Source: an uncultured Candidatus Saccharibacteria bacterium
GTDB taxonomy: Bacteria; Patescibacteriota; Saccharimonadia; Saccharimonadales; JAGQNJ01
Assembly: GCA_965231045.1 (NCBI GenBank)
Contig: OZ246406.1
Coordinates: 514,208-578,207 of the forward strand
Direction: 5' to 3'
Length of the DNA stretch: 64,000 bases
Shown here in pieces: positions 32,739-56,009 of the stretch; positions within the stretch are counted from its first letter, which is position 1, and each line of letters begins with the position of its first letter. The notes beneath the pieces were generated by a model that was not told where the DNA came from, did not search any database, and saw only the letters and a list, made by a program, of their open reading frames with translations. Made by a program: the position numbers and the translations under genes.

Positions 32739-32877
32739 TATCTATCAAAAGTGGTTATGTCTATATTTTTTCTATATAATACATATATAAGCGTTTATGC
32801 ACGCGCATTAAACCAATGGGGAAAAATATATAAAGATGCAACAAAACAATGGTTGATATTAAAGGTAAACTAATCTG

Positions 32878-34698
32878 ATGCAAATATCTGATACTCTTCT
32901 AGTTAAACTTCTGACTGAGTCAGGAAAAGTCAAAAAAGAGCAACTCGCTCAATTAAAAGACCAGGCTGCGGCAGAAAAAAAGAAACTACAGGACATGGTT
33001 ATAAAAGCCAACGTAATTTCTGAAAAAGACCTTACTAAGCTTTATGCCAAAGAAATTGATGCCCCTTATGTTGAGCTAAATCCTAAAGAGATCGAAAGAG
33101 AAGTTCTTAGGCTTATACCTGAACGTATCGCACGCCAGTATAATGTAGTTGTTTTTGGAGTTGATGAGAAGAGCAAGAAACTCCTAGCCATGGAAGATCC
33201 AGATGATGTTCAGGCAGTGGGTTTCCTGCAAAAGCAACTTGGCAATGACGTCAAGATATATATTGCTCCTGCCTCTAATATTCAATCTGCTATCGAACAA
33301 TATCATGGCAATAATATTAATAGTGAGCTAACGAAGGTAATCTCCGGCGAAGATGAGGATGAGAACAAGGAAGAAGAGGAAGTATCAGAAGAGGATTTAG
33401 CCGAAGATTCACCAATTGCTCAAACAGTAAACTTAATTATCGAATATGCCGTAAAAGCTGGTGCAAGTGATATTCATATAGAACCTCGCGAAGGCTATGT
33501 TTCTGTTCGATATCGTGTGGATGGTGTTTTACGAGAAGCAAACAAACTTCCAAAAAAAGTCATGGGGGCTCTAATATCACGCATAAAAATCCTGGCTAAT
33601 CTTAAGATTGATGAACACCGAGCCCCACAAGATGGTCGATTTAAAATTAGCGCATCGGGGGGCGCCTTCGCCTTGCGTGTATCAACACTGCCAATTATGG
33701 ATGGTGAAAAAGTTGTCATGCGTATTCTAAATGAATCCTCTCAGGCATTAACTCTTGAAGATCTTGGATACTGGGGCCATTCTAAAGAAACTATTCAAAG
33801 AGCAATAGTTCAGCCCTACGGCATGATCCTTGTTACAGGGCCTACAGGTTCAGGAAAATCAACTAGCCTCTTTAGCGTTCTAAGTATGTTAAATCGCCCA
33901 GATGTTAACATCTCTACCGTAGAAGACCCGGTTGAGTACCGTGTTGTCGGTGCTAATCAAACACAAGTTAACCCGGTAGCCGGGATGACGTTTGTTAATG
34001 GCCTCCGAGCTTTGCTACGACAAGATCCAAACGTAATTATGGTTGGTGAGATTCGAGATGGTGAAACTGCCAACCTTGCAATTCAAGCAGCCTTAACTGG
34101 ACACTTAGTCTTCTCTACCCTTCACACAAATAATGCTGCAACCTGCTTACCGCGTTTGCTTGACATGGGTGTTGAGCCATTCCTTATAGCAAGCACAGTT
34201 CGTGCCGTAGTTGGACAACGGCTTGTACGTCGTCTTTGCGTCGATTGCCGTGAGTCTTTCAATCCAGACGAAGCAACTTTGAAGCAAGTTAATCATATAT
34301 TCCACACCGATCAGGCTGAAATGATGAAAACCATTCATAAGCTCGAACAAGAAGCTCTTGAAGCTGGAATTGGTAAAGCTAACCCATCCAAGAAAGGCAA
34401 AGAATCGACTTCAGAACTCTCCACAACAGATGCAAAGATCGCTAAACTCTGGAAAGCCCATGACGGGGGATGCGACAGCTGTAACCATACTGGCTATAAA
34501 GGTAGAATGGGTATCTACGAAGTTTTGGAAAATAGTTCGGAGATCCAAAAACTTATTGTTTCTAATGAGACGAGTGAAAATATTCAGCAACAGGCAATTA
34601 AAGAAAATATGGTTACCATGCAGACCGATGGATTTATTAAAGCCCTTCGTGGTCAAACAAGTATTGAAGAAATTCTAAGAGTTACAACAGAAACCTAG
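32878..34698 (+). CDS. pilB: Type IV pilus assembly ATPase PilB (GspE family)
   Basis: Walker A GPTGSGKST, Asp/His boxes, and the tetracysteine CVDC...CDSC. Confidence 0.93.
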   Translation: MQISDTLLVKLLTESGKVKKEQLAQLKDQAAAEKKKLQDMVIKANVISEKDLTKLYAKEIDAPYVELNPKEIEREVLRLIPERIARQYNVVVFGVDEKSKKLLAMEDPDDVQAVGFLQKQLGNDVKIYIAPASNIQSAIEQYHGNNINSELTKVISGEDEDENKEEEEVSEEDLAEDSPIAQTVNLIIEYAVKAGASDIHIEPREGYVSVRYRVDGVLREANKLPKKVMGALISRIKILANLKIDEHRAPQDGRFKISASGGAFALRVSTLPIMDGEKVVMRILNESSQALTLEDLGYWGHSKETIQRAIVQPYGMILVTGPTGSGKSTSLFSVLSMLNRPDVNISTVEDPVEYRVVGANQTQVNPVAGMTFVNGLRALLRQDPNVIMVGEIRDGETANLAIQAALTGHLVFSTLHTNNAATCLPRLLDMGVEPFLIASTVRAVVGQRLVRRLCVDCRESFNPDEATLKQVNHIFHTDQAEMMKTIHKLEQEALEAGIGKANPSKKGKESTSELSTTDAKIAKLWKAHDGGCDSCNHTGYKGRMGIYEVLENSSEIQKLIVSNETSENIQQQAIKENMVTMQTDGFIKALRGQTSIEEILRVTTET

Positions 34699-34706
34699 GG
34701 TGGAAC

Positions 34707-35984
34707 ATGGCTCAATTTAGTTATACAGCATTAAAAGGAAGTAAGAAGGTCACCGGGGCTCTTGAGGCCCCAAGTCAAGAGGCAGCTATGGCCACGTTGC
34801 GCAAACAGGAGCTTCACCCGTTAGTCGTTAAAGTTCAGGGTGGTCATTTCCTATCAAAGCTACACAAAAGTAGGAAGGTAAAGCTAAAAGACCTTGCTAT
34901 CTTTACTAGACAGTTATCAACAATGGTTTCGGCAGGTGTACCTTTAAATCGCTCTTTAAATACCTTGCAGGCTCAGACAGATAGTAAATACTTTCAAAAA
35001 GTAATCCTTAACATTAGTAAGGATGTTGAGAGCGGTAAACCACTGGCTGATAGTTTTGCTAAATACCCAAACATTTTCTCAGATGTGTATGTAAATATGG
35101 TCCGAGCTGGAGAAGCTGGTGGAATTTTAGACGAAATCCTCAAACGTATTGCCTCGCAAGTTGAACAAGATTCTACCATGCGTAAAAAAATAAAAAGCGC
35201 TATGATGTACCCGATTGTGATTTTGAGCATCACTGTTATCGCCTTCTTTGGAATTATGCTATTTATTATCCCTAAGATCGGAAAAATTCTGACTGACCTT
35301 GGCGGCCCAGATGCAAAGTTACCAATTTATACCCAAGTAATGCTTAGTATTAGTGGATTTTTGGTGAGCAACAGTATCATCAACCTGATTCCTGGCATCA
35401 ATTTGATCCCACTTATCAACAAAATACCGAACGCCTTCTTTATTGGTATTATACTTGCCATAGCGCTATTCTTTGTACGTCGTTATATTAAGACGGCTAA
35501 AGGCAAATACAAATTTCATAGTTTACTTCTTAGAATACCGGTATTAAAAACTGTACTGATTAAGATTGCGATCGCTCGTTTTGCGCGAACCTTTGCATCT
35601 TTGATGTCTGCTGGCGTTGGTGTCCTTGATGCCCTTGAAGTCACCGGCGGTGCAATTGGTAATAAGGTGATCGAAAAAGAACTTCAAGATGCAGCCAAAG
35701 AAGTTAAGAATGGTAAGCAACTATCACAGCCTCTGAATGGGAGTAAATACTTTCCGCCTATTGTTTCTCAAATGCTTGCTGTTGGCGAAGAAACAGGCCA
35801 GATTGATACGATACTGGTCAAAGTTGCTGATTTTTACGAAGAAGAGGTTGAAACCACCATTGACGGCCTCAGCTCAATAATTGAGCCACTAATGATTGTG
35901 ATACTTGGTAGCATTGTTGGCCTGATTGCCGCGAGTGTTATGGGGCCAATTAGCTCTTTGAGCAAGAATATTGGCAACCAATAG
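34707..35984 (+). CDS. pilC: Type IV pilus platform protein PilC (GspF family)
   Basis: 425 aa with the duplicated GspF domain pattern (..FTRQLSTMVSAGVPL.., ..FARTFASLMSAGVGVL..). Confidence 0.92.
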   Translation: MAQFSYTALKGSKKVTGALEAPSQEAAMATLRKQELHPLVVKVQGGHFLSKLHKSRKVKLKDLAIFTRQLSTMVSAGVPLNRSLNTLQAQTDSKYFQKVILNISKDVESGKPLADSFAKYPNIFSDVYVNMVRAGEAGGILDEILKRIASQVEQDSTMRKKIKSAMMYPIVILSITVIAFFGIMLFIIPKIGKILTDLGGPDAKLPIYTQVMLSISGFLVSNSIINLIPGINLIPLINKIPNAFFIGIILAIALFFVRRYIKTAKGKYKFHSLLLRIPVLKTVLIKIAIARFARTFASLMSAGVGVLDALEVTGGAIGNKVIEKELQDAAKEVKNGKQLSQPLNGSKYFPPIVSQMLAVGEETGQIDTILVKVADFYEEEVETTIDGLSSIIEPLMIVILGSIVGLIAASVMGPISSLSKNIGNQ

Positions 35985-36030
35985 CCCTATCTTTATATCC
36001 ACAGGTGTTATGTAGCAATAAATTTCAGAC

Positions 36031-36058
36031 TTGACCGAGAGATGCTTATGTTTATAAT
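36031..36058 (+). promoter_or_regulatory. Near-consensus promoter for the major pilin gene (TTGACC-16 nt-TATAAT)
   Basis: -35 at 36031-36036 and -10 at 36053-36058, with a strong SD AAGGAGGGTGGG before the ATG at 36138. Confidence 0.55.
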
Positions 36059-36137
36059 GATACCTAGCTAGAACCTATAGAAGTAGGATCTTAGTAATTG
36101 TTAAATAATAAAAAGTAACTAAGGAGGGTGGGTCCCT

Positions 36138-36584
36138 ATGACTTCACTAAAACTTAAACAACGCGGTTTTACGATCGTTGAACTTTTGATCGTAATCGTC
36201 GTTATCGGTATCTTGGCAGCACTTGTCATTACAACATTTACCGGTATTCAACAAAAAGCTCGAAACACAGAGCGACAAACAGACATTAAGGCTATTCACG
36301 GCCAGGTTGAGGCATACTATGCTCAAAACGGTCGTTATCCAACTTTGGGTAACCTAAATGACTCTGCATGGCGCGGAAGCAACATGAAAGGTCTTGATCC
36401 AGAAGCTTTGAAAGATCCTAAGGGAGCTGCTCAAACACTTGCTGACACAGCTGGTGCTAACGTTTACTCTTACGTAGTAACCCCAGCTAACTGTGACAAC
36501 GGTGCTAACGGTGACTGTACTGGCTACACCTTGACTGCTACATATGAAGGTGGTGGTACATTTAGCAAGACAAACCTTAACTAA
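36138..36584 (+). CDS. pilA: Major type IV pilin
   Basis: MTSLKLKQRGFTIVELLIVIVVIGILAAL. It has its own strong promoter, SD and terminator, and a C-terminal Cys pair (CDNGANGDC). Confidence 0.85.
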   Translation: MTSLKLKQRGFTIVELLIVIVVIGILAALVITTFTGIQQKARNTERQTDIKAIHGQVEAYYAQNGRYPTLGNLNDSAWRGSNMKGLDPEALKDPKGAAQTLADTAGANVYSYVVTPANCDNGANGDCTGYTLTATYEGGGTFSKTNLN

Positions 36585-36602
36585 GACTTAAAGTTTTAGG
36601 AG

Positions 36603-36631
36603 AAAGAGCGCTCAACAACGAGCGCTCTTTT
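36603..36631 (+). terminator. Intrinsic terminator after pilA
   Basis: AAAGAGCGCTC-AACAAC-GAGCGCTCTTT followed by T(A)ATT. The stem is GC-rich and perfect. Confidence 0.75.
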
Positions 36632-36675
36632 AATTGTGGCAGAAGTGGTTTAACAGCGTATAATAGTTAGTAAGC

Positions 36676-37098
36676 ATGAGCAAGTTAATTAGAAACGAAA
36701 CTGGCTTTAGTATTGTTGAGCTTTTAATCACGCTTATTATTATTGCTGTGGCTTTTGGTGCATTTATGGTTACATTTACCAGCATTCAAGGTATTAACAA
36801 GAAATCTATAGATATAAACAATGCAACTGAGTCTGCTTACACAAAGCTTCAGGAATACGAAAATAAAAGCTTCTCCACCCTACCTACCACATCACCCTCA
36901 GGAACACTTGTGCAAGTTGAAGATTTTAGCAGCAGTGTACCTGCAGGTCTTGAAAAACCATATACAGCACTCGTATATGTCAATACTCAGTCACCAACCC
37001 TCAAGCAAGTTGTGGTAAGTATTAAGTTTGGTAGTGGATCAGGCCAACGTGTTATTGAGTTTGGGACTTTAATACAAAAGAATGGGCTTGGACGATGA
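36676..37098 (+). CDS. Minor pilin / pseudopilin
   Basis: The N-terminus NETGFSIVELLITLIIIAVAFG has the prepilin motif. Confidence 0.7.
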   Translation: MSKLIRNETGFSIVELLITLIIIAVAFGAFMVTFTSIQGINKKSIDINNATESAYTKLQEYENKSFSTLPTTSPSGTLVQVEDFSSSVPAGLEKPYTALVYVNTQSPTLKQVVVSIKFGSGSGQRVIEFGTLIQKNGLGR

Positions 37099-37811
37099 AA
37101 GATCAACATGGCTTTACACTTGTCGAAGTTCTAATCATGGCTCCGATTATGATTCTAACAATTGTGTTTTTGATGAGTTTCTTGTTTTCTCAATATGGGG
37201 ACCTCACCAAGCAAGGTGCTCAAATTAACTTACAGACAGAGGCTCAAGTTATTACCTTCAGTATGGAAGATGATGTATTTTTCTCAAATGCATTTGTCCA
37301 AGATCTAAATGCCGGTCTTATTGATACCTACCAGCCATCTGGTGGCTGGAAGTACAATACCACACCACAAACCTTAATTATCTCTGAACCTGCAATAACA
37401 AAAAATCGACGAGATCCAGATAGACAGCCAGTTTTTATTAATACAGTGGGATGCGATACAAGTGTTATTGAAGATAATTCTCCCTTGTATAACAACATAA
37501 TTTACTTTGTAAGTGGCACAAACTTGTACAAAAGAGTAGTAAGTGCGCCGGCAACAATGTCAACTTGTGGAACCAGCTTTATGAAACAAACATGTCCTCA
37601 GGCACATGCCAGCACTAGTTGCCCGGCTGATAAATTACTCACTGATAAGCTTGATACATTCGCTGTTACTTACTTAGATACAAATAACAATGCTGTAAGT
37701 GATCCTGAACAAGCTGAACGGCTTAAGGTTGTATTGACGCTCAAAGATAGGGCATACGCTGAGGATATACACAGCACTTCAACAATAACCCTAAGAAAGC
37801 TTAACCAATGA
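37095..37811 (+). CDS. Minor pilin / pseudopilin
   Basis: The N-terminus KDQHGFTLVEVLIMAPIMIL has the prepilin motif. 4-nt overlaps with both neighbours. Confidence 0.7.
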   Translation: MKDQHGFTLVEVLIMAPIMILTIVFLMSFLFSQYGDLTKQGAQINLQTEAQVITFSMEDDVFFSNAFVQDLNAGLIDTYQPSGGWKYNTTPQTLIISEPAITKNRRDPDRQPVFINTVGCDTSVIEDNSPLYNNIIYFVSGTNLYKRVVSAPATMSTCGTSFMKQTCPQAHASTSCPADKLLTDKLDTFAVTYLDTNNNAVSDPEQAERLKVVLTLKDRAYAEDIHSTSTITLRKLNQ

Positions 37812-39718
37812 TCCACAAGAATCTAAAACACTTAAACATAATGAACGAGCAAGGCTTTGCAATGCCTATGGTGATAATGCTAATGGTCATTATGACTTTT
37901 ATCGCATATGCGGCCCTGCTTCAAGCAAATAATGGCCTTAACCTAGCCTATAAACAGGCCTATATTCAAATGGCACGTACAGCTTCAAAAGCATCTATCG
38001 ATTATGCTCAGGAGCAATTTGATAATTCCTTATGTGGTAATTACAATGGCTCATCTGAAAAAGACCTAGTAAATAACAGCCGCTATCGAGTTACTTATAA
38101 AGCTGAGGTACTCAGCACTTCAGCTGACGGCCTTGAGAAGACTATAAAGGGAACGGGTAGTGTTTATTTACCTAAGGTATCCAATACCGCCCAATATGTA
38201 TTCGATATTCGATCTGAAGTCGTTAGAACTTTTGCAGCATGTAAAACGCCAGATAATTATAGTCCTACTCTTTGGCTTGACAGTAGTGATTTAACAACCC
38301 TATTTAAACCCGGTAGTACTTCTTCAGCCACAATCACTCCAACCACTACTTTTGGTTCTGCCGGTGGAACGTCACGCGACACTCTTGAGGAGCGGGCCGA
38401 TAATGGTGCTCAAACAACTAATTCATGGCAAAGCACTGATCTTGAAATGCACACCTGTGATTCAACCGAATTTACTAGTACAGTATGTTCAAGCAACACA
38501 ACAAAATACCTGTATGACGGAATAATCTTCCAAAACGTAAACCTTCCAAAAAACTCGACAATTACTTCAGCAATAATTAACTACGACTGTGGTGCTGGTG
38601 GAACCTCCGGTCCATTAACACATCAAATATTTGGCATCTATAAATCAGCTACTAACTTACACCCTGATTTATTTACTAGCACCGGTAGTAATCAACTTAA
38701 AACTCCAATGACAACAAATGGTTTACATACTTCTAGTTCAGCCACACTTTCCACCAACAATTGTCCCCCAGGAAATGGCAACACTATGGACATAACAAGT
38801 GTTGTTCAAGAGATTGTTAATAATTCAAACTGGGATCCGTCCACAGGTGGTGGCCGTATGGGTTTCGCTATGCAGCGAACGAGTGGTAATGGTGCTCGAA
38901 AATTCAACAAAGATAATATTCGCCTAGCAATTACCTACAGTAGTACCGGTGGACCAACACCAACTACCGCAAATAACGATTCGATTGCAGAGTGGCATGA
39001 CAAATCAGGCAACGGAAATAATGCTATATCAACTTACGGTAATATCCCGACTCGTATTGATGGTCAAATAAATAATAAGCCGATCGTCAGATTTAATAAC
39101 GGAGCTATGCTCAGTGCACTAAATACAGCCCTTGCTAACAAGCGTGAGATGACGGTTTTTGCAGTTATGAAAGCTAATTATGGTACAAGTAGTAGTGACG
39201 GCCGTGTAATAAGTGGCATGACCAACACAACAAGTGACGACACTACCGGTACATCGACGATAATACCGCTCCTCAGAAATGGAACAAATTCAGGGTTTAG
39301 CAATATTTATGCAAGTAGTACTGCTTCCAACCGTACAGACTACATCTGTAATGCAACATGTGCTAGCAATCCTTATATATATACCTCGGTATTCACGAAT
39401 CAAGACGCAAACCACACGACTTCTACACTTAAAGGCCAGGGGGCTCCCGCTACATCGAAAACCGGCATTAGTCCTTCAGGATCCAGTACCTATGTGTATG
39501 GCATTAATCAGCTATATATTGCAGGTCGCAGAACTGGAACTTCGCCAGGAAGTGGTACCAATTACTTTAATGGTGACTATGCTGAGTTAGTAGTTTACGA
39601 TCATGCATTAACTTGTCGGCAAGTTGAATCAATTGAGGAGTATTTGCGGGCCAAGTGGAATATCACTGCTTCAGCCTATGAAACAACCTGTCCACCAGAC
39701 ACCGTTCCAACACTATAA
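37808..39718 (+). CDS. Large pilus-associated protein: pilin-like N-terminus lacking Glu5, plus a C-terminal LamG/concanavalin-like domain (candidate tip adhesin)
   Basis: The N-terminus NEQGFAMPMVIMLMVIMTFIAYAAL is PilX/GspK-like. The C-terminal part ends ..NYFNGDYAELVVYDHALTCRQVESIEEYLRAKW, typical of LamG-type jelly-roll domains. Confidence 0.6.
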   Translation: MIHKNLKHLNIMNEQGFAMPMVIMLMVIMTFIAYAALLQANNGLNLAYKQAYIQMARTASKASIDYAQEQFDNSLCGNYNGSSEKDLVNNSRYRVTYKAEVLSTSADGLEKTIKGTGSVYLPKVSNTAQYVFDIRSEVVRTFAACKTPDNYSPTLWLDSSDLTTLFKPGSTSSATITPTTTFGSAGGTSRDTLEERADNGAQTTNSWQSTDLEMHTCDSTEFTSTVCSSNTTKYLYDGIIFQNVNLPKNSTITSAIINYDCGAGGTSGPLTHQIFGIYKSATNLHPDLFTSTGSNQLKTPMTTNGLHTSSSATLSTNNCPPGNGNTMDITSVVQEIVNNSNWDPSTGGGRMGFAMQRTSGNGARKFNKDNIRLAITYSSTGGPTPTTANNDSIAEWHDKSGNGNNAISTYGNIPTRIDGQINNKPIVRFNNGAMLSALNTALANKREMTVFAVMKANYGTSSSDGRVISGMTNTTSDDTTGTSTIIPLLRNGTNSGFSNIYASSTASNRTDYICNATCASNPYIYTSVFTNQDANHTTSTLKGQGAPATSKTGISPSGSSTYVYGINQLYIAGRRTGTSPGSGTNYFNGDYAELVVYDHALTCRQVESIEEYLRAKWNITASAYETTCPPDTVPTL

Positions 39719-39774
39719 GCAATGAATGCAATCTGTTATACTAACATTAACCCGCTTACGTTTAAATAACGCAT

Positions 39775-40839
39775 ATGAACAAAACATATTTCTACAAAGA
39801 TAAACCCATATTCGGCCTTGACATTGGCTTTACCAGCGTCAAGATCATGCAAGCCGCCCCAGGCCCAAAAAAATACACCGTAACAGGTTACGGCGTAAAC
39901 AATTTTGATCCAAAAGCAGTGGATAACGGAACTATAGTTGATATCGAAAATATTGCTAGTTCAATTCATGATTTATTCAAGAATCACCTTGTAGGCGACA
40001 TTACAACTCACCGGGTGGCAATGTCAGTACCCGCCGCCCGAACCTTTACGCGTATTCTCACCCTACCAAATCTTGATGAAAAAGATACAACTGAAGCTGT
40101 AAAATTAGAAGCAGAACAATATATACCCGTACCTATTGATGATCTGTATATAGACTTTCAACAAATAAGAAAGACTGAAAAAGATCAAGATTTCCTTGTT
40201 GTAGCCGTTCCCAAAAAGATAATTAACTCTTACCTTGATCTAGCTAATATCCTTGGCTTAGAGGTTATCGCAATGGAGACAACACTCGGTTCCACAGGTC
40301 GTTTGTTCCAACATACCGATCAACAAAATCTTCCGACCGTAATTATTGATTTTGGGTCGGTGTCAGCAGATGTAACAATTTATGATAACAAAAGTCTCGT
40401 TGTAACTGGTACTGTTCCTGGTGGTGGAGATGATTTTACTAACCTAATTGCACAAAATCTAAACGTAACAAACCAAGAGGCACACGTCATTAAGACAAAA
40501 TATGGTCTAGGAGTAAGTAAAAAACAGAAAGAGATCATAAAAGCACTTGAGCCAAAACTAGATGTTATCGTTAAAGAAATTAAGCGCATGCTTCGTTACT
40601 ATGAAGAGCGAACTGATGCCAACAAAAAAATTGGACAAATTATTACCCTTGGTGGTGGTGCAAATATGCCTGGACTCAGCGAGTACCTTACCGATACACT
40701 ACGCGTCCCAGTGCGTGCATGTAACCCATGGGATAATCTAAGTTTTGATCATCTGCAGCCACCAAGTACCCTAGAAAAGTCTATTTATCTTACTGCTGCA
40801 GGGCTTGCACTTATTAATCCTCGGGAGATATTTTCATGA
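39775..40839 (+). CDS. pilM: Type IV pilus assembly protein PilM (actin-like ATPase fold)
   Basis: FGLDIGFTSVKIM N-terminus, ..IIDFGS..T.., and ..LGGGANMPGL. Confidence 0.88.
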   Translation: MNKTYFYKDKPIFGLDIGFTSVKIMQAAPGPKKYTVTGYGVNNFDPKAVDNGTIVDIENIASSIHDLFKNHLVGDITTHRVAMSVPAARTFTRILTLPNLDEKDTTEAVKLEAEQYIPVPIDDLYIDFQQIRKTEKDQDFLVVAVPKKIINSYLDLANILGLEVIAMETTLGSTGRLFQHTDQQNLPTVIIDFGSVSADVTIYDNKSLVVTGTVPGGGDDFTNLIAQNLNVTNQEAHVIKTKYGLGVSKKQKEIIKALEPKLDVIVKEIKRMLRYYEERTDANKKIGQIITLGGGANMPGLSEYLTDTLRVPVRACNPWDNLSFDHLQPPSTLEKSIYLTAAGLALINPREIFS

Positions 40840-41426
40840 TAAATTTACTACCTCCCGAAGAAAAATCAAACATATTATACGCAAGACGTAATACTGTATT
40901 GCGTCATTGGGTTTTCGCATTATTAGCTGTACTGGCTGGGTCTATTGTATTTTTAGCCGCGGGCCAGGTATATATTGCGCAAACCACCTCCCACCTAAAC
41001 AAGCAGGTAACTGCTCAGCGTGAATCATTGAAAGAACAAAAACTTGATGAAACTCAGAAGCGACTATCTGACCTGTCCAACAACCTTAAGCTCATTATTC
41101 AAGTCCTTTCTAGAGAAGTCTTATTTTCTAAACTACTACGTCAAGTTGGTGCAGTCATGCCTCAAGGATCCGTTCTATCTTCTATTGAGTTAAGCAAAGT
41201 TGAAGGTGGGATCGATTTAAGTGCAGAGGCTGCTGATTATAATACTGCAACACAAATCCAGGTTAACCTTCAAGATCCCAGTAATAAGTTGTTTGATAAA
41301 GTTGATATAATTCAGGTTAGTTGTGCGCAAGCAAAAGGTGACCCCTATCCTTGTAAGGTAACCTTACGAGCCTTGTTTGCAAAGAACAATCCTTTCCTAT
41401 TCATTAATAATGGAGCTAAGCAATGA
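40836..41426 (+). CDS. pilN: PilN-like bitopic protein
   Basis: MINLLPPE start motif, a single TM helix and a coiled-coil segment. Its position after pilM, with a 4-nt overlap, supports the call. Confidence 0.7.
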   Translation: MINLLPPEEKSNILYARRNTVLRHWVFALLAVLAGSIVFLAAGQVYIAQTTSHLNKQVTAQRESLKEQKLDETQKRLSDLSNNLKLIIQVLSREVLFSKLLRQVGAVMPQGSVLSSIELSKVEGGIDLSAEAADYNTATQIQVNLQDPSNKLFDKVDIIQVSCAQAKGDPYPCKVTLRALFAKNNPFLFINNGAKQ

Positions 41427-42079
41427 GTCCAAAACGCGCATATTACATGATGATTGGGCTTGTAGTGTTGCTCAGCACAGCTGTAATTGGCAGCCTTATT
41501 GGTGGAAACATATTCTTAGAAAATCAAGCAAAAAAGCTAAACTCACTTAAGGTTGAGGATAAGGTGTTGGAGGAGCAACAGAATGCACTTAATCAAGCAA
41601 ATAAAGATATCGTGAAATATGCTGAGCTTGAAAAGGATGCCAAATCAGTAGTACCACAGGACAAGGATCAAGCAAAGGCTGTGTTGGAAATAATTCAAAT
41701 TGCAAAAGCTAGTAATATATCCATAAAAAGCATAACGTTTCCTAGTTCAAACCTTGGGGCCAAAGCTGCCCCAACAACAAACTCTAGTGATTCTAGCGAA
41801 AAAAGTGGCTCAAGCAGTACCCCGGTAACACCGCCAATTAGTCAAGCAAAACCTGTTGATGGTATTAAAGGTGTATACAGTTTAGAAATGAATATTGTGC
41901 CTGAATCCGATAATGGTAACGTGATAAGCTACTATCAGTTCCTAGACTTTTTGCAAAGGCTTGAAAACAACCGTCGAACTGCCCAGGTAACTCAAATTAG
42001 AATATCTCCTAAAACTAGCGATAAACAAAGCCCCATTATCACTTTCACATTAACACTTAATATATTTGTAAAGCCGTAA
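41423..42079 (+). CDS. pilO: PilO-like bitopic protein
   Basis: Single TM helix, a coiled coil, then an alpha/beta domain. Assigned by position after pilN and by architecture. Confidence 0.55.
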   Translation: MSPKRAYYMMIGLVVLLSTAVIGSLIGGNIFLENQAKKLNSLKVEDKVLEEQQNALNQANKDIVKYAELEKDAKSVVPQDKDQAKAVLEIIQIAKASNISIKSITFPSSNLGAKAAPTTNSSDSSEKSGSSSTPVTPPISQAKPVDGIKGVYSLEMNIVPESDNGNVISYYQFLDFLQRLENNRRTAQVTQIRISPKTSDKQSPIITFTLTLNIFVKP

Positions 42080-42083
42080 TATC

Positions 42084-42383
42084 ATGAAGTTAGATATTAA
42101 ATCTATACCAAAGAAAGCCACAAGTATACTTAAAAAATTAAGTAAGTATTCTGTGTTCATTTTTGTCATTTTTGTATTACTAGCTTATGGGTTTATAGTG
42201 GTTAGAATCCGAACTCTAGCAAGTACTGAACCAAGTGACGACGCAGTTTCTGAACAGTTAAATACCTTGAGTAAGCCAAAGATTGATAAGCAAACTATTG
42301 ATAAAATACAAAAGCTTCAAGACAGTAATGTCCAGGTTAAGGCCCTATTTGATCAAGCTCGCGATAATCCATTCCAAGATTAA
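42084..42383 (+). CDS. Small bitopic protein ending the pilus operon
   Basis: 99 aa with one TM helix (VFIFVIFVLLAYGFIVV). No recognisable family. Confidence 0.45.
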   Translation: MKLDIKSIPKKATSILKKLSKYSVFIFVIFVLLAYGFIVVRIRTLASTEPSDDAVSEQLNTLSKPKIDKQTIDKIQKLQDSNVQVKALFDQARDNPFQD

Positions 42384-42384
42384 G

Positions 42385-42954
42385 CTATGGATTTGTGTTG
42401 GTAGTTTGAATAGCATTATTATTAAATGCTTGTTCGCAATCAGAAATTTGCTTGGCAACATAGTTTGCATCTGGACAATAATCAAAATGGAAGTTGGCCT
42501 GTTCTCCAGCTGTTTCTACATAAACTGTCCCATACTTTAATAAAGAAGCAAAAATACCTTTTTGTACAGCACTAACGTCCTCAACGTCACCTAGACTTAA
42601 TTGAGAAATTTTTCGATTGAATAGCCCAATTTGGTTAACTTGGGTGATATTAGTATGTGTTACTACTAGCTGGCTTCTTCTGTAAACAAAAGTGGCCAAT
42701 GCCAGCACTACGGCAGTTAAGGCCAAGATTAAAATAAGTACCAAACTTCCAATGCCATATACTTGTGTCTTGTTATTTCCAGCCAACGACGGTACTAAAA
42801 ACGCAAATAGTGCAAAAACTGCAATTATTCCTAACAGCGCTTCTATATAAAGAACAATTAACCCAAATATATGTTTATGCACAGAAATAACAATTTGGTC
42901 AGGTGGTTTTGGGTTTGTGTTTCCAACTACAGGCCCTTTCGGTACTTGATCCAT
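42385..42954 (-). CDS. Membrane protein with a bacterial PH (YdbS/YdbT-like) domain
   Basis: Two TM helices followed by ..QLVVTHTNITQVNQIGLFNRKISQLSLGDVEDV.., typical of the DUF304/bPH family. Confidence 0.55.
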   Translation of the reverse strand: MDQVPKGPVVGNTNPKPPDQIVISVHKHIFGLIVLYIEALLGIIAVFALFAFLVPSLAGNNKTQVYGIGSLVLILILALTAVVLALATFVYRRSQLVVTHTNITQVNQIGLFNRKISQLSLGDVEDVSAVQKGIFASLLKYGTVYVETAGEQANFHFDYCPDANYVAKQISDCEQAFNNNAIQTTNTNP

Positions 42955-50191: not shown

Positions 50192-50680
50192 CTATTTCTT
50201 GCGCTTTTTGCTGCGCTTTTCGCCACCACTATTGAGAATCCACAATGCGATAAGTTGCAAGAATACAATAGCTCCAATTACTATGCTGTCCATCCCAATG
50301 AACTTAGCAGTTAACTGATTATTTTGGATAATTTCTTGGACTGATCCAGGCAACACCGCAAGCATAAACGACGCATAAACTACTCCTGTAACAATTAAGG
50401 GGACAATGTGCAGAATAGTTTTACCACGGCTAAGTGATCCTTTTAGAAAAACAGCCGTTAAAATCATTGGCAAAGTTAGCAATATAGCCTGACCATATCC
50501 AGCGAATTGAGTACTTCGAGTAAATGATTCAATCACTGAAAAGGCATCAGTTCCAAAATATCTGGCCAGCAACTCGCCGGCCATAACACTAAAAAATATG
50601 TGTGACGCACTAACGCGCATGAAAAGTCCAAGCAGTAGCGGTAGGGCAATTAAAGCGCCGATAATAATGAATGCTGTCAT
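50192..50680 (-). CDS. Multi-pass membrane protein, unknown function
   Basis: 162 aa with about 5 hydrophobic helices and a KRSKKRKK tail. Confidence 0.5.
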   Translation of the reverse strand: MTAFIIIGALIALPLLLGLFMRVSASHIFFSVMAGELLARYFGTDAFSVIESFTRSTQFAGYGQAILLTLPMILTAVFLKGSLSRGKTILHIVPLIVTGVVYASFMLAVLPGSVQEIIQNNQLTAKFIGMDSIVIGAIVFLQLIALWILNSGGEKRSKKRKK

Positions 50681-50704: not shown

Positions 50705-51232
50705 TTAAAAATAGAGCTGTTGACCTTCTGATAGACCAAGTTTTTGAGCTCTGTCAGCATTGATCTCCAAAACATACTGAGCTGGACTACTAGGACAAAA
50801 AGATGTCGGGTATGATGATGGTGATACATTGGGCTCAACATGCACAATCTTTTTTTCTTTACTAAGCCAAACTATATCTAGGTTAAACTTCATATCTTTC
50901 ATCCAAAAACATCGGTCACCTTCGCTTTCAAATACAAACATCATACCTTCGTTACTAGGCAATGAATTACGGTTTCCCAACCCCTTTTCCTGCGAGGCTT
51001 GGTCAAGTGCAAAGTCTAGCCTAACTATGCATTCACTTGAGGTTAACTTTCTCAAACACGGTTTATGCTCTTGTAGTTTTTGTTGCCCTAAAATAACCAA
51101 CCAAAATAAAGTGGTTAGTAGTACAACCAATATAATTCCAACCACAATTCTGTTAGTGAGGAGAGGTTTGTTGGGCCGCTTAGGCGCCAACTCGATCTTT
51201 TCGGTGTTGTTTTTTGGCGTTTTGTTCGACAT
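50705..51232 (-). CDS. DUF192-family protein with an N-terminal membrane anchor
   Basis: ..GLGNRNSLPSNEGMMFVFE..FWMKDMKFNLDIVWL..YVLEINA.. matches the DUF192 pattern (from memory). The annotated start overlaps the rimK 3' end by 53 nt. Confidence 0.65.
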   Translation of the reverse strand: MSNKTPKNNTEKIELAPKRPNKPLLTNRIVVGIILVVLLTTLFWLVILGQQKLQEHKPCLRKLTSSECIVRLDFALDQASQEKGLGNRNSLPSNEGMMFVFESEGDRCFWMKDMKFNLDIVWLSKEKKIVHVEPNVSPSSYPTSFCPSSPAQYVLEINADRAQKLGLSEGQQLYF

Positions 51233-52082
51233 ACTCGATTATTTTTTCTGCTACATTTCGGCCAGTAACTTTTTCAATTCCAAAACCGGGGCTAGCATTA
51301 ACCTCTAGCACTAGTGGCCCACGATCTGAACGCATCATATCAACACCACAGATTGGCAGTCCCATAGCCTTGGCTGCTTTTTGAGCCGTCTTACGTTCCT
51401 CGTCAGTTAATTTAATCGAGCTGCCTTCACCACCTTGGTGTAAGTTTGAGCGAAAGTCATCGTCCAAGCTCTGACGCTTCATACTAGCTACAACTTTACC
51501 CCCAACAACAAAGGCACGGATGTCAGTACCGGCCGATTCCTTAACAAATTCTTGTACTAAAAAGTTCACGCCCTCAACATAGAAGGCCTGCATTACAGCC
51601 TCAGCCGCTTTTTGAGTTTCTGCCAACACGACACCTTTACCGTGCGTTCCTCGGGCAACCTTAATAATTAGCGGAACCCCGCCAGCCTGAGTTATAACGT
51701 CATCCAGATCAGCAGTTTCACGAGCAAACACGGTTTTTGGAATACCAACACCGGCTCTTGCTAGTAATTGTGTAGCGCGCAACTTGTCTCGTGTTCTGTT
51801 AATTGCCAGCGAACTAGCCGTTGAGTAGACACCTTGCATTTCAAATTGTCGAACTACAGAGCTACCATATTTGGTCAAACTTGTAGCAATACGAGGAATT
51901 ATTACATCAACATCACTAAGGTTTTCCCCTTTGTAACGAACTACTGGCGTACTGCTCTCTAGTGTTACGTAGCACTTGGCGTAGTTAATAACCCGGACAT
52001 TATGGCCACGTTCGGTTGCCACCTCTTTAAGGCGTCTTGTTGAGTAGTTGGCTGATCCCTTTGATAGAATTACGATATTCAT
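51180..52082 (-). CDS. rimK: RimK-family ATP-grasp alpha-L-glutamate ligase
   Basis: 300 aa. MNIVILS..NYSTRRL..HNVRVIN.. N-terminus, ATP-grasp core (..RGTHGKGVVL.., ..QEFVKES.GTDIRAFVVGGKVV.., ..GVDMM....GPLVLEVNASPG). Confidence 0.88.
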   Translation of the reverse strand: MNIVILSKGSANYSTRRLKEVATERGHNVRVINYAKCYVTLESSTPVVRYKGENLSDVDVIIPRIATSLTKYGSSVVRQFEMQGVYSTASSLAINRTRDKLRATQLLARAGVGIPKTVFARETADLDDVITQAGGVPLIIKVARGTHGKGVVLAETQKAAEAVMQAFYVEGVNFLVQEFVKESAGTDIRAFVVGGKVVASMKRQSLDDDFRSNLHQGGEGSSIKLTDEERKTAQKAAKAMGLPICGVDMMRSDRGPLVLEVNASPGFGIEKVTGRNVAEKIIEYVEQNAKKQHRKDRVGA

Positions 52083-52084
52083 GG

Positions 52085-53329
52085 TTAAATCCTCTGTAAC
52101 TTATTATTGAATGTCTTGTAAAGAAGCTGTAGTGATATCTTAGGATTATTTCCTTGCACATAGATTATAACGTCCTCTGGTCGTGCAAGGGAAGCAGCTT
52201 TTTTCAGTGCCGCCTCTTCCTCGATAATATGAAAAACATCTGACTTTGTCTCCACCTTAAGCATATCTGCAAATAACTTAGAAACATAGCCTACTTTTTC
52301 TTGGCGGAATGGATTATGCTTATCACTTGGCAAGCGGGTTTTGCCATCGATCTTGTCATAAATTACGAACGTGTCGAAGTCATTGGCAATGGCTTTAGCC
52401 GTCTCGGTAACTAAATCATCTGTGCGAGTTGGTGAAAGCCTTAAAACACCTATTATTTTTCCTTCTGGTGACAGGTGTTTGGCAAGTTTTGTTATTTCTT
52501 TCAATGATTCTTTTTCGTGGGCAAAATCAAATATTACATATCTGCCATCTTCTGTCTTAAAGGTAACTAACCGCCCACTTTCTTCTGTTGGTTCATAGGT
52601 CTTTAGGCTGTCTATTGCTGACTCTGGTAATTTGTCGTCAAAGTAGCCAATTAATGCTCCGATCACCAAAAGAACATTGTATGCACTTGGCTCAAAGCCT
52701 GGTTTGTACATTTTATAATCGGCAACTTGGCCTAGGTCATATTTTGTCTTTGAACCGTTACAAACGATCTCACCTGCTTCGTTTACATATAGATTAATAT
52801 CACCTGTTTTAACTTCATTTAATGAGCAGGCAATTTTGGTTACCATCTTTTTTGATGGCAAACGCTTTAGCTGAGCAGTAATAAGTGAATCGTCAGCATT
52901 ATAGACAGCATAACCTTCGTTCCCTATCCGAGAAAAAATGAAACTCTTGGCACTAGCAATATCTTCTTTAGTTTGGAGTGTCGCGTCTGCCCCTTTATGA
53001 TCTTCAAAAACATTCGTGAATACTCCGACTTTGTGGGTACTATAACCTAAACCACATGCCTTTGAACAAAATAGATTAGCTTCTAAGACCGCGCAGCGTT
53101 TGCCAGCCTTTTTAGCCAAAAGTGTAATGAACCTGCCTGGTGCATTGGCTGGGGCTAAGCCCCAAATAAGCTTGCTATCATCATGAGTTAATTCATGCTG
53201 ACCGTTTACCCACGCGCCCTCTGTATCAACGCGTAATAAATAATCAACGGTGGGCATTAAAACATGGTCTAACGCCCTCACTACCGAGGTCTTACCCTTT
53301 GTACCAGTTACGCTAAGTATAGGCAGCAT
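52085..53329 (-). CDS. Mur-ligase-family protein resembling the M domain of cyanophycin synthetase
   Basis: It starts directly at the P-loop (SVTGTKGKTS). It aligns by eye to CphA M-domain blocks (VLEAN..GLG, GVFTNVFEDH, YAVYNADD, SGRL, VIFDFAHEKESL, and an R.D-rich segment before FDTFVIYDK). Confidence 0.75.
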   Translation of the reverse strand: MLPILSVTGTKGKTSVVRALDHVLMPTVDYLLRVDTEGAWVNGQHELTHDDSKLIWGLAPANAPGRFITLLAKKAGKRCAVLEANLFCSKACGLGYSTHKVGVFTNVFEDHKGADATLQTKEDIASAKSFIFSRIGNEGYAVYNADDSLITAQLKRLPSKKMVTKIACSLNEVKTGDINLYVNEAGEIVCNGSKTKYDLGQVADYKMYKPGFEPSAYNVLLVIGALIGYFDDKLPESAIDSLKTYEPTEESGRLVTFKTEDGRYVIFDFAHEKESLKEITKLAKHLSPEGKIIGVLRLSPTRTDDLVTETAKAIANDFDTFVIYDKIDGKTRLPSDKHNPFRQEKVGYVSKLFADMLKVETKSDVFHIIEEEAALKKAASLARPEDVIIYVQGNNPKISLQLLYKTFNNKLQRI

Positions 53330-53338
53330 GGTTGTACC

Positions 53339-53737
53339 TTACTTTTTAAGCACCCCTGCTGGATCAACAATAAATTCATGACGCTTCAAAAATCTACGAC
53401 CAATAAGTACTGGGTATTTCATGTGTGAGCGATTAGCGAGTGTAATGCGGATTCTGTAAGCTTCTTTCTTAATAACTATGTCGGTCAATATAGAAAATCG
53501 TTGCTCTTCTGTGCCGTTTGAACTTCTAACTATAAGAACCCTGAATCGATTAGTAGAGTAATGCTTGTCGGTTCCGTGAATTTTGAAGTATAAGTGCTGA
53601 ATGCCGTTTTCCTCTTTGATAAACATTTCATCACAAAAAAGAGAGCCTGAATAAGCCCCAGTATCAACTTTTGCTCGCATCTCGAGGTTATCAAATTGCG
53701 GAAAAGTAACTTTAACTAGTGATCCGACTGTTCGCAT
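53339..53737 (-). CDS. Retropepsin-like aspartic protease of the RimK-associated type (annotated in databases as putative ATP-dependent zinc protease; RimB-like)
   Basis: 132 aa with KVDTGAYSGS (a D-T/S-G signature) and a ..PVLIGRRFL.. tail typical of the family found next to rimK. Confidence 0.7.
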   Translation of the reverse strand: MRTVGSLVKVTFPQFDNLEMRAKVDTGAYSGSLFCDEMFIKEENGIQHLYFKIHGTDKHYSTNRFRVLIVRSSNGTEEQRFSILTDIVIKKEAYRIRITLANRSHMKYPVLIGRRFLKRHEFIVDPAGVLKK

Positions 53738-53775
53738 GTGTTTATTATACCATATATTAAGTATTTATACAATGT

Positions 53776-53889
53776 TTAATGAGCTGCTCTGACTCTTAAG
53801 TAAACAAGCACAATTGCGGCTACAATCAGTACAATTAATAAAATAATCATTGGTATAAAGCCTTTTTGGTTTTGCTTAAGCTTCTTCAT
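53776..53889 (-). CDS. Possible 37-aa single-helix membrane peptide
   Basis: Hand translation: MKKLKQNQKGFIPMIILLIVLIVAAIVLVYLRVRAAH*. No clear SD. It lies between the GGDEF gene and the protease gene. Confidence 0.3.
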   Translation of the reverse strand: MKKLKQNQKGFIPMIILLIVLIVAAIVLVYLRVRAAH

Positions 53890-53943: not shown

Positions 53944-54858
53944 TTAAATACGACTATCTTTAAAATCAATTCCTTGCTCTTTAAGAAGTGCTCTTCGTTC
54001 ATTTTTGGCTGTGATCATGTCCCTGTCGACTCGACTGACAAACTCCTGCCAGGTTTCGCCGGGTGTAAGAACACCCCCTGCTATGCTAATACCTAAACCT
54101 AATTCATCAACGGGCAACCCAGCGCCTCGGTATGCGGAAACAATTGTTTCTTGAATAACCTGGGCACGAATATCAATATATTTATCTGGGGGAATATTTT
54201 CAGGGGACTTAAAATTCTGGAGTACGACCACAAACTCATCACCACCATACCTATATATAAGATCAATACCCGAACGAACTTGATCTTGCAGTTTTGCACC
54301 AGTAAGTGAAAGTACCTCGTCACCTTTTGCATGAGAAACGTTATCATTTAAACGCTTAAATCCATCTAGATCTGCAAATAATATCGCCAGAGGTTGTTGC
54401 CTATTAAGTGCTGCCTCTACCATCTCAGGAAACTCAGCACTAAAGGCGTTTCTATTACGGGCTTGGGTCAACAAGTCTATACGGCTTTCGTGACGTAATC
54501 TTTCGGTTAGGCGTGCATCCAGTTTGCGTTGCATTTTATGTGTATCATGAAGTTCGTCAATTTGAGCATGAAGTTCGTTTGCATGATCAACAAGTTCTTG
54601 TTTTTCTGCTGCATTAGTTACGGCATTACCGGCTAGAATTCGTCGAAAGGTACGACCTTCAACAGTATTAACTCTTTTGGTCGGGTCAAAAATAACATCG
54701 TTATTTTCGCCCTGCAAATGCCCACCTTCGCTTACTGGCTTTAATGAGTCTTCAGGATAATCAGCAAATATTCGGTTCGCAGCGTCAGAAGCATCATGGA
54801 TTAAAGCATCCTCGTCTGGATGCCCATCATGGCTTTGATTTAATTCCGCTTTATTCAT
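53944..54858 (-). CDS. GGDEF-domain diguanylate cyclase with an N-terminal coiled-coil region
   Basis: LAILFADLDGFKRLND..GD..L, and RYGGDEFVVVL with an intact GGDEF. The track start (TTG at 54924) overlaps dnaJ, so the ATG at 54858 (MNKAELNQ) is preferred. No canonical RxxD I-site lies 5 residues upstream (the sequence is RSGID). Confidence 0.8.
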   Translation of the reverse strand: MNKAELNQSHDGHPDEDALIHDASDAANRIFADYPEDSLKPVSEGGHLQGENNDVIFDPTKRVNTVEGRTFRRILAGNAVTNAAEKQELVDHANELHAQIDELHDTHKMQRKLDARLTERLRHESRIDLLTQARNRNAFSAEFPEMVEAALNRQQPLAILFADLDGFKRLNDNVSHAKGDEVLSLTGAKLQDQVRSGIDLIYRYGGDEFVVVLQNFKSPENIPPDKYIDIRAQVIQETIVSAYRGAGLPVDELGLGISIAGGVLTPGETWQEFVSRVDRDMITAKNERRALLKEQGIDFKDSRI

Positions 54859-54914
54859 GTTTATTGTTTTCTCTATCTGTATGTATAGTAACCGCCGTAA
54901 GGGATGTGTGCAAG

Positions 54915-56009
54915 TTATTGCCAAAAGCCTTTGTGCTTTTCGAACTCTTCTAGTATCTCGCGTTGTCGCTTACTAAGTTTTTGTGGAATATCAACAATGA
55001 CCGTAACAATATGAGCCCCCCTAGACTTTGATCTTAGATGCGGGACACCATGTCCAGATAATTTAAAGTCCGTTCCACTCTGTGTACCACTTGGTATTTT
55101 GATTGTTATAGGGCCGTCAACCGTATCAACCTCTTTTTCACTACCAAGTGCCGCATCAATCATGCTGACGTGTTCTTCACTAAGTATCAAATCACCTTCG
55201 CGAGTAAATTTCTTGTGTGGTTTTACACGTATATTTACATAAAGATCACCCTTAGGACCATTAGCCACAGCCTCGCCACGTTCACGCAAGCGAATCGTTG
55301 CACCATCATCAATTCCGGCAGGAACCTTGAGTTTAATTTCTTGTTTCTTTGGTTGAACGCCTTTGCCATGGCAAACTGAACAAACCTTTTCTGGAATCTT
55401 ACCTTTGCCCCGGCAAGTACTACAAACCACTGCTTGTTGAATATTACCGAAGACTGTACGCGTAACTGTCATTACTTGGCCCGAACCTTTGCATGTTTCA
55501 CAAGTCTTAAGTTCATAGCCTGGCTCAGTTGTCGTGCCCTTGCAGTGTTCACAGTTATCCTCAATGTTGAGTGATAGGTCAATGTCAGTTCCAAAAACAG
55601 CTTGTTCGAAAGTTAGATCAACGTTTGTTTGAACATCGTGCCCACGGGATTGTCTTTGGCCACGTTGACCACCAGCACCACCAAAAAAACTACTAAAAAT
55701 ATCGCCAAGGCCTAGATCACCAAAATCGAAGTGGACATTTTGCCCTTGGCCACCAAAGCCAGCAAACGGGTCACCGCCATCACTTGCGGCGCTACTACCA
55801 ACACCCGCGTGACCAAACTGATCGTAACGCTGACGTTTACGCTCATCTTTCAACACTTCGTACGCTTCGTTTATTTCTTTAAATTTGGCCTCGTCGCCAC
55901 CTTTATCTGGGTGATGTTCAATAGCCGCCTTGCGAAATGCTTTTTTGATTTCATCAGGGCTAGCACTTTTACCTACGCCTAGTACTTCATAATAATCACG
56001 CTTGCTCAT
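54915..56009 (-). CDS. dnaJ: Chaperone DnaJ (type I: J domain, G/F region, four CxxCxGxG zinc-finger repeats)
   Basis: HPDK J-domain motif, a GG/F-rich linker, and CEHCKGTT, CETCKGSG, CSTCRGKG, CSVCHGKG. Confidence 0.96.
   Translation of the reverse strand: MSKRDYYEVLGVGKSASPDEIKKAFRKAAIEHHPDKGGDEAKFKEINEAYEVLKDERKRQRYDQFGHAGVGSSAASDGGDPFAGFGGQGQNVHFDFGDLGLGDIFSSFFGGAGGQRGQRQSRGHDVQTNVDLTFEQAVFGTDIDLSLNIEDNCEHCKGTTTEPGYELKTCETCKGSGQVMTVTRTVFGNIQQAVVCSTCRGKGKIPEKVCSVCHGKGVQPKKQEIKLKVPAGIDDGATIRLRERGEAVANGPKGDLYVNIRVKPHKKFTREGDLILSEEHVSMIDAALGSEKEVDTVDGPITIKIPSGTQSGTDFKLSGHGVPHLRSKSRGAHIVTVIVDIPQKLSKRQREILEEFEKHKGFWQ

Follow-up and report, generated by a model that had tools for sequence, protein, structure and literature searches.

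A stand-alone ligase related to the M domain of cyanophycin synthetase as an accessory of a Saccharibacterial rimBK locus

A compact group of minus-strand genes at positions 50705–53889 was analysed in a 64-kb stretch of DNA from an uncultured Candidatus Saccharibacteria bacterium (contig OZ246406.1; the whole stretch is called the window below). The group includes rimK, a gene for a RimB-like peptidase and, between them, a gene for a Mur-type amide ligase. It is a rimBK locus of the Saccharibacteria type into which the ligase gene has been inserted in this lineage. Judged by sequence and predicted fold, the ligase is related to the M domain of cyanophycin synthetase (CphA) and represents a distinct stand-alone family, not a member of CphA. 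The reading we prefer, for and against which the arguments appear about balanced, is that this accessory ligase may decorate, cap or amidate the poly-α-glutamate made by RimK.

Open reading frames (ORFs) were read from a six-frame listing of the window. In the order of transcription, the group comprises a RimB-like retropepsin-type aspartic peptidase (53339–53737, 132 amino acids (aa), PF05618), the stand-alone Mur-type amide ligase homologous to the CphA M domain (52085–53329, 414 aa, PF08245 and PF02875), a canonical RimK, the α-L-glutamate ligase of S6 glutamylation and poly-α-glutamate synthesis (51180–52082, 300 aa, PRK10446), and a membrane-anchored DUF192 protein (50705–51232, 175 aa, PF02643), all encoded on the minus strand. 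The rimB-like and ligase genes are separated by 9 nt, the ligase stop and the rimK start by 2 nt, and the DUF192 gene overlaps rimK by 53 nt. A preliminary description made from the sequence alone had named these four genes; all of them are present in the ORF listing, with exactly this overlap, and its family calls (retropepsin with a DTG motif, Mur-type ligase, canonical RimK, DUF192) are borne out by Pfam and NCBIfam. An alternative TTG start of the DUF192 gene at 51190 would shorten the overlap to only 11 nt; gene callers use the ATG. Eight further public contigs with an identical ligase carry the same gene set in public gene calls.

Both Pfam domains of the ligase, PF08245 (57.5 bits) and PF02875 (39.5 bits), score above their cutoffs and place it in the Mur ligase superfamily. 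The P-loop, GTKGKT, occupies residues 9–14, and the ORF starts eight residues before it. Since rimB ends 9 nt upstream, there is no room for an N-terminal domain; the protein has no UDP-binding N-terminal domain, and neither the CphA N domain (PF18921) nor a fused ATP-grasp G domain is found on the polypeptide, for which Pfam gives PF08245 and PF02875 only. The top NCBIfam match is cyanophycin synthetase (TIGR02068, 2e-39), aligned over model positions 479–850, which is the M-domain region; the score of 135.3 bits lies below the cutoff of 850 for full-length CphA1. The MurE models follow with 1.5e-17 and 52–63 bits against cutoffs of 257–373, and the FolC model with 20.8 bits against 162.65. 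No match to the MurT model NF045635 was obtained at E < 0.01, the DUF1727 domain is absent, and the PgsB and CapB models are not among the NCBIfam matches. Based on these scores and the domain content, a housekeeping Mur ligase, FolC, MurT or CapB was rejected as the identity of the 414-aa protein. A genuine Saccharibacterial MurE is a separate protein (locus L036, 335.7 bits), and all tested members of the ligase family match CphA best in NCBIfam.

Comparison with known structures gave the same picture. In a comparison with the sequences of the PDB, good scores were confined to CphA1 entries (7wac, residues 488–861, 3.8e-16), and the M domain of TeCphA1 spans residues 488–876 (PMC9427784). 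An AlphaFold (AF2) model of the ligase built from 26 family members reached a pLDDT of 94. The top five PDB matches of this model in Foldseek are all CphA1, with TMq 0.77–0.80 for the first four (0.80 for 7wae) and 0.69 for the fifth, and MurE comes behind them with about 0.65–0.70. The alignment with the CphA M domain, originally made by eye, thus agrees with profile hidden Markov models, PDB sequences and fold, by which the protein is nearest to that domain and not to a housekeeping ligase.

The catalytic residues are conserved as well. K13/T14, T36 and E83 of the ligase correspond to K499/T500, T522 and E558 of TeCphA1, as defined in PMC9427784, and D110-H111 corresponds to D585-H586 of Su CphA1, whose mutation inactivates the M domain (PMC9262961). 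Across the family, the catalytic residues are invariant or nearly so (H111 is invariant, D110 nearly invariant). An M-domain fold, the P-loop Lys and Thr, the Mg-binding Thr and Glu, and a catalytic Asp-His pair are therefore all present in the ligase. The substrate region carries motifs of its own. The family has an insert, S52...PGR66, in which S52, P64 and G65 are invariant and R66 is nearly invariant, the motif DxAHExxS, and YDKxDG with an insert of about 12 aa at the place where CphA has D..RGR and MurE has DNPR. Because these motifs are specific to the family, the amine specificity of CphA is not transferable to the ligase.

An exhaustive search of 1.84 billion representatives with the ligase returned 808 matches. 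The first 100 or so are mostly stand-alone proteins of about 400–435 aa, the remainder of them being shorter fragments; after these come CphA-type proteins of 600–950 aa, aligned from about residue 480. The family amounts to about 100 clusters at 50% identity, and its named members are mostly bacteria of the candidate phyla radiation (CPR). In a neighbour-joining tree, the stand-alone ligases are monophyletic; the tree gives no firm deep order among them, the CphA M domains and MurE, and no sisterhood is drawn from it.

The RimK of the window exceeds the cutoffs of PRK10446 (333.7 bits against 331) and TIGR00768 (254.5 against 143.4), contains PF18030 and PF08443, and scores 84 bits to the CphA model. 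The peptidase matches PF05618 with 59 bits (5.6e-16; cutoff 27) and carries D25-T26-G27 within KVDTGAYS; it has no signal peptide or hydrophobic N-terminus, and its gene lies in the rimK operon. With 56.3 bits to the NCBIfam RimB model NF052261 it does not reach the cutoff of 200, and so it is classed as RimB-like only. In E. coli, RimK needs an S6 protein that ends in Glu-Glu. The C-terminus -EE is present in 18 of 21 close S6 homologues (P0235–P0255), one of which is named Candidatus Saccharibacteria. In the related locus L014, the S6 gene (165–500, in the order rpsF-ssb-rpsR) lies about 3 kb from the ligase/RimK cluster and its product ends in ...KAKEE. Since the S6 proteins of relatives mostly end in -EE, ordinary S6 glutamylation is plausible as the predicted function of the core rimBK system.

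In a reverse survey, a metagenome scan with the window RimK gave 80 loci with RimK 75–84% identical. Their common layout is dnaJ, an optional GGDEF gene, a micro-ORF, rimB, rimK, an optional DUF192 gene and a gene for a 162-aa membrane protein. Enough upstream sequence to be informative was available for 45 loci: the ligase is present in three, a second ATP-grasp gene occupies that slot in 11, and neither is found in 31. On the RimK tree, the ligase-positive loci are scattered among the negative ones. Taken together, the count and the scatter mark the ligase as an accessory of a conserved rimBK locus, gained or lost repeatedly, and such a distribution is not that of one half of a split cyanophycin synthetase. 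The patchy pattern is consistent with a ligase that depends functionally on the ATP-grasp/RimB module.

The surroundings of the ligase family itself were examined in 30 loci (21 from species-representative genomes, and others). An ATP-grasp ligase lies within a few kb in 25 of them, and a RimB-like domain adjoins in about 20. The partner is canonical RimK in Saccharibacteria and in one metagenome-assembled genome (MAG) labelled Nomurabacteria, a divergent RimK-like protein in L006, L019 and L021, and an L-amino-acid-ligase-type ATP-grasp in L012; ATP-grasp_4 also occurs among the partners. In L004, L007, L009 and L022, the ligase is accompanied by ATP-grasp_3, a fusion of ATPgrasp_ST with a retropepsin, and a 7TM_transglut protein. 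Two or three ATP-grasps stand beside the ligase in L001, L014 and L069. The gene order varies too, being micro-ORF, RimB, ligase, RimK in the clade of the window and ligase, RimB, RimK elsewhere. Furthermore, the 299-aa fragment P0166 joins a RimB-like domain (31–161) to Mur_ligase_M (174–285), and partners are fused to one another as RimB::RimK in L011 (6050–7453) or as ATP-grasp::RimB-like, with further fusions at L014 4641–5969, L069 8252–9742 and L004 3632–5038. The linkage recurs in MAGs labelled Moranbacteria, Nomurabacteria and 'Bdellovibrionales', among others, with varied ATP-grasp types and orders. The association of the two ligase chemistries with a trimming peptidase, which the preliminary description had put forward from a single locus, is thus repeated in several CPR lineages.

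In three Saccharibacterial lineages, a gene for a stand-alone class-I glutamine amidotransferase (PF00117, with a weaker match to Peptidase_C26) is located directly upstream of the ligase gene (L010 5385–5951; L066/L067 5390–5941; L152 1149–1715). Its best match is GMP synthase subunit A, far below the cutoff, and no clear orthology emerges; the cluster of the window contains no amidotransferase gene. By analogy with MurT/GatD, this protein could supply ammonia, or it could be a γ-glutamyl hydrolase. A class A penicillin-binding protein (PBP) gene, with transglycosylase and transpeptidase domains, follows the ligase/ATP-grasp cluster in L004 (7350–9905), L009 (7345–9906) and L019 (2202–4859); its position next to these three non-Saccharibacterial CPR clusters could reflect synteny or a link to the cell wall. 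In addition, tandem paralogous CphA-M-like ligases with no ATP-grasp in view occur in L016 (5974–8516) and L018 (5974–8510), whose MAGs are labelled Gammaproteobacteria and are possibly mis-binned.

From these data, we propose the following scheme for the locus. RimK would make α-linked oligo- or polyglutamate, which would either extend S6 from its -EE C-terminus or occur as free chains. The RimB-like peptidase would trim the glutamate chains and may also stimulate their synthesis and generate primers; in Pseudomonas, RimB both cleaves Glu tails and stimulates the synthesis of free poly-α-glutamate by RimK (PMC11957791). The ligase would then phosphorylate a carboxylate of the RimK product, most likely the γ-carboxyl of the terminal Glu, in the way that the CphA M domain acts on the β-carboxyl of the last Asp, and would join an amine to it. 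This amine may be an amino acid or, in the lineages with the adjacent glutamine amidotransferase, ammonia; amidation is conceivable in those lineages because the amidotransferase gene directly precedes that of the ligase (L010, L066/67, L152). This would yield a polyglutamate that is branched, capped or charge-neutralised and differs in its charge and in its susceptibility to RimB. A branched cyanophycin-like polymer, a cap that halts elongation or blocks RimB, and amidation are all envisaged as outcomes.

CphA1 combines three activities, those of its G and M domains and a primer-generating hydrolysis by its N domain (PMC9262961). By analogy only, RimK, the ligase and the RimB-like peptidase may be regarded as functional counterparts of G, M and N, respectively. 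A more ambitious version of our reading, which we offer tentatively and rate as doubtful, is that the three proteins form a three-enzyme machine mirroring the extension, side-chain ligation and primer-generating hydrolysis of CphA on poly-α-glutamate, the product being a new γ-decorated polyglutamate or a branched reversible S6 tail in ultrasmall CPR bacteria; the conserved membrane proteins of the locus might anchor or export this product.

Several observations weigh against the decoration of RimK's polyglutamate by the ligase. The rpsF gene is not within the 64-kb window, and the S6 data come from relatives. Five of the 30 ligase loci have no adjacent ATP-grasp: the ligase stands alone in L008, forms the tandem pairs in L016 and L018, and lies at contig edges in L017 and L020. 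The extra ATP-grasps in L001, L014 and L069 suggest a defined multi-residue peptide and not a decorated homopolymer. Most relatives have a RimK that works with no ligase beside it; the ligase could accordingly act on something else and have only its regulation in common with rimBK. Some of the co-occurrence among Saccharibacteria amounts to no more than conserved synteny from dnaJ to rimK. Finally, the C-terminal amino-acid-binding motif of the ligase is unlike those of CphA and MurE and does not point to a particular acid or amine substrate.

Among the alternatives, we rank first the synthesis of a defined short non-ribosomal peptide, which we nevertheless consider unlikely. MurC-F and Ddl build the stem peptide of peptidoglycan residue by residue, and in a similar manner the ligase and each ATP-grasp would add one residue, the RimB-like protein would process or recycle the peptide, and the membrane proteins would export or anchor it. 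Such a role would suit the loci with two or three ATP-grasps, the L-amino-acid-ligase-type partner in L012, the tandem ligase pairs in L016 and L018, and the slot upstream of rimB being filled by either a second ATP-grasp or a ligase gene. It would also give a place to the membrane or extracytoplasmic partners, namely DUF192, the 162-aa protein and, in the loci resembling the Rlo system (see below), 7TM_transglut. However, the sole ATP-grasp of the window is a canonical RimK, known for processive Glu addition, and no precursor or carrier is evident. Moreover, the RimB-type peptidases characterised to date recognise poly-Glu (PMC11957791).

Next in order, and in our view rather improbable, is a ligase that acts on another substrate and is merely co-located or co-regulated with rimBK, for example in an amidation of the MurT/GatD kind or in the modification of the cell wall or of a cofactor. 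The class-I amidotransferase upstream of the ligase in three lineages recalls MurT-GatD, the PBP gene follows the cluster in three loci, and five of the 30 loci show no visible ATP-grasp partner. On the other hand, the ligase has neither a MurT match nor DUF1727, its FolC score is far under the threshold, it lacks the UDP-binding domain, and Saccharibacteria own a separate bona fide MurE (L036). The linkage to at least three ATP-grasp subfamilies and to RimB-like domains in unrelated orders, as well as the RimB fusion in P0166, also argues against a mere co-location.

The preliminary description spoke of a split cyanophycin-synthetase-like pair that would make a branched amino-acid polymer or a branched protein tail. 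A true split cyanophycin synthetase, in which RimK would serve as the G domain making poly-Asp and the ligase would add Arg, comes third in the order given here and is, in our estimation, highly improbable. The best profile, PDB and fold matches of the ligase are indeed to the CphA1 M domain, JGI annotation names members of the family 'cyanophycin synthetase', and a 2026 preprint lists 'cyanophycin synthetase' in 5 of 21 Saccharimonadia MAGs, from which cyanophycin synthesis was inferred (bioRxiv 10.64898/2026.09.16.751625). Yet the RimK scores above the S6-glutamate ligase equivalog threshold, as against 84 bits to CphA, and is 75–84% identical to RimKs of loci that have no ligase. The ligase in turn is absent from most of the closely related rimBK loci (present in 3 of 45), is not accompanied by a CphA N domain, stays at 135 bits against the TIGR02068 cutoff of 850, and falls into a separate clade marked by particular inserts and motifs in the substrate region. 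A genuine split CphA is therefore disfavoured, and the label 'cyanophycin synthetase' on an M-domain-only family is probably a misleading over-annotation. An adjacency due to chance or to synteny alone, in which the genes would not be linked in function, is given the same very low weight; it would draw on the fact that much of the Saccharibacterial co-occurrence falls within one conserved dnaJ-rimBK neighbourhood, but it is countered by the recurrence in several MAG labels with different ATP-grasp types and orders, by the gene fusion in P0166 and by a ligase that is repeatedly gained or lost and yet is found at this locus whenever present.

Returning to the rimBK locus with its accessory ligase, three putative membrane proteins accompany it. 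The micro-ORF (53776–53889, minus strand, 37 aa, MKKLKQNQKGFIPMIILLIVLIVAAIVLVYLRVRAAH) encodes a single-transmembrane peptide with the motif NQxGFIPM; position 53889 is its start, whereas the start of the RimB-like peptidase is 53737. In at least 35 related loci, some of which have the ligase and some not, a homologue of 36–41 aa precedes the rimB/rimK cluster (the window, L003, L010, L066 and L070–L152, and also in public gene calls). Common to them are a basic N-terminus, NQxGFIPM(L/I)I, a single transmembrane helix and a C-terminus of the type ...RV..AQH. At the junction of G and F, the sequence looks like a site for prepilin peptidase (class III signal), except that Glu is missing at +5.

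The DUF192 protein (PF02643, 2e-28, 98.8 bits against a cutoff of 27) has a transmembrane helix at about residues 28–50. Its PDB relatives 3m7a and 3pjy are uncharacterised, and the literature likewise gives no function. Roughly one in two related rimBK loci has this gene, whether or not the ligase is there. Directly downstream, and conserved together with the cluster, lies the gene for the 162-aa membrane protein (50192–50680, minus strand), which has about four transmembrane helices and belongs to no known family in Pfam. It follows rimK or the DUF192 gene in most related loci having sequence 3′ of rimK, and every homologue carries a polybasic Lys/His-rich C-terminal tail. One may speculate that this tail could bind a polyanion beside an enzyme that makes polyglutamate. 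An hhalign comparison of this protein family with a single PgsC sequence gave a probability of 0.2%; with no PgsC similarity and no Pfam family, a PgsBCAE-like export machinery was rejected. The micro-ORF, DUF192 and the 162-aa protein belong with rimBK and not with the ligase, so the view of the peptidase, ligase, RimK and DUF192 genes as one unit, taken in the preliminary description, does not hold.

Immediately upstream of the cluster, a GGDEF diguanylate cyclase gene is located at 53944–54924 on the minus strand (PF00990, 4e-26, GGDEF motif intact). Its true start is likely the ATG at 54858, giving 304 aa, and a 304-aa call exists in L153. In many related loci, dnaJ and rimB flank a GGDEF gene, which occurs in either orientation. 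The surroundings of the cluster in the window also include dnaK, grpE, dnaJ and type IV pilus genes; together with the database matches of the proteins, they point to a Saccharibacteria-like organism. The pilus cluster, of a kind typical of Saccharibacteria, lies at about 32100–42400 on the plus strand and contains several prepilin-type ORFs with N-termini GFT(I/L)VE, ORFs of 606 and 425 aa as candidates for a PilB-like ATPase and a PilC-like platform protein, and a candidate PilM/N/O-like set.

An extended -10-like element, TGGTATAAT, was found at 53744–53752 on the minus strand and ends 6 nt ahead of the rimB-like ATG. For want of a good -35, the promoter consensus scan passed over it. In L151, TATAAT stands at the equivalent spot. 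No Shine-Dalgarno sequence precedes the rimB-like ATG, which, with the position of the element, suggests that the predicted rimB-like transcript is leaderless or nearly so. In addition, six proteins were compared with the PADLOC models; there was no match, and an anti-phage defence system was rejected.

The preliminary description knew of no characterised system with this composition. In line with this, literature searches on RimK with Mur ligases or cyanophycin, on split or stand-alone CphA and on RimK or cyanophycin in CPR yielded no description of the family or the arrangement, the 2009 amidoligase survey (Iyer et al., Mol Biosyst 5:1636) not being covered. If the gene behind the preprint mentioned above belongs to the M-only family, its inference of cyanophycin is doubtful, and metabolic reconstructions of Saccharibacteria may more generally infer cyanophycin storage from an M-domain-only protein. 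To our knowledge, cyanophycin is the only natural polymer made by a pair of an ATP-grasp and a Mur-type ligase, and very few enzymes of the CPR have been characterised. The repeated recruitment of a stand-alone relative of the side-chain ligase to RimK/RimB loci points towards a new peptide chemistry based on ligases, whether of a polymer or of a protein tail. Also, in the sampled Saccharibacteria-type loci rimBK stands as a conserved locus that has membrane partners of its own, which extends the RimK/RimB story well past Proteobacteria. Being small and soluble, the enzymes lend themselves to a direct test of the idea.

Among known systems, the poly-γ-glutamate synthases PgsBCAE/CapBCAE share with the locus a Mur-superfamily amide ligase, small membrane proteins and the context of a glutamate polymer. 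In contrast to them, the membrane genes of the window type stay with RimK even when the ligase is missing, and the ligase does not match PgsB or CapB. The lipid II isoglutamine synthase MurT-GatD likewise contains a Mur-superfamily protein without the UDP-binding domain, and the adjacent amidotransferase in three lineages adds to the likeness; that amidotransferase, however, is of class I (PF00117) and not of the GatD type, and the ligase has no MurT match or DUF1727. RloABC of Pseudomonas aeruginosa (PMC12239564), which consists of the secreted retropepsin RloA, the 7TM inactive-transglutaminase RloB and the ATP-grasp RloC, has the same three domain types as L004, L007, L009 and L022. These CPR loci encode the peptidase as a fusion with the ATP-grasp, whereas RloA is secreted; the window itself is of the Rim type, and no Mur-type ligase has been described for Rlo.

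With CphA1 (N, G and M domains; PDB 7LG5, 7WAC), the ligase shares the fold over the whole M domain (Te 488–861) as well as its P-loop, Mg ligands and catalytic Asp-His pair, and the ATP-grasp and the polymer-cleaving hydrolase of the window parallel the G and primer-generating N domains by analogy, not homology. The differences are that the polypeptides of the window are separate and include no N domain, that the ATP-grasp partner is the Glu-specific RimK instead of a CphA G domain, that the ligase family has the insert S52...PGR66 and YDKxDG for the D..RGR region, and that in most relatives the locus does without the ligase.

The Pseudomonas rim operon includes the EAL protein RimA, and RimK is regulated by cyclic di-GMP (c-di-GMP). 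A c-di-GMP enzyme gene thus lies nearby in both systems, a GGDEF cyclase in the window and the EAL phosphodiesterase RimA in Pseudomonas. Like RimBK/RimABK of Pseudomonas (Little et al. 2016; Grenga et al. 2020; Little et al. 2025), the window has a DTG retropepsin gene adjacent to a canonical rimK. RimBK hybrids have been reported, and the relative L011 likewise has a RimB::RimK fusion; the S6 proteins of the window's relatives mostly end in -EE. The RimB-like peptidase of the window differs by its 56 bits against the RimB equivalog cutoff of 200, and to the RimBK plan the window adds a Mur-type ligase between rimB and rimK and the conserved membrane partners, namely the micro-ORF, DUF192 and the 162-aa protein.

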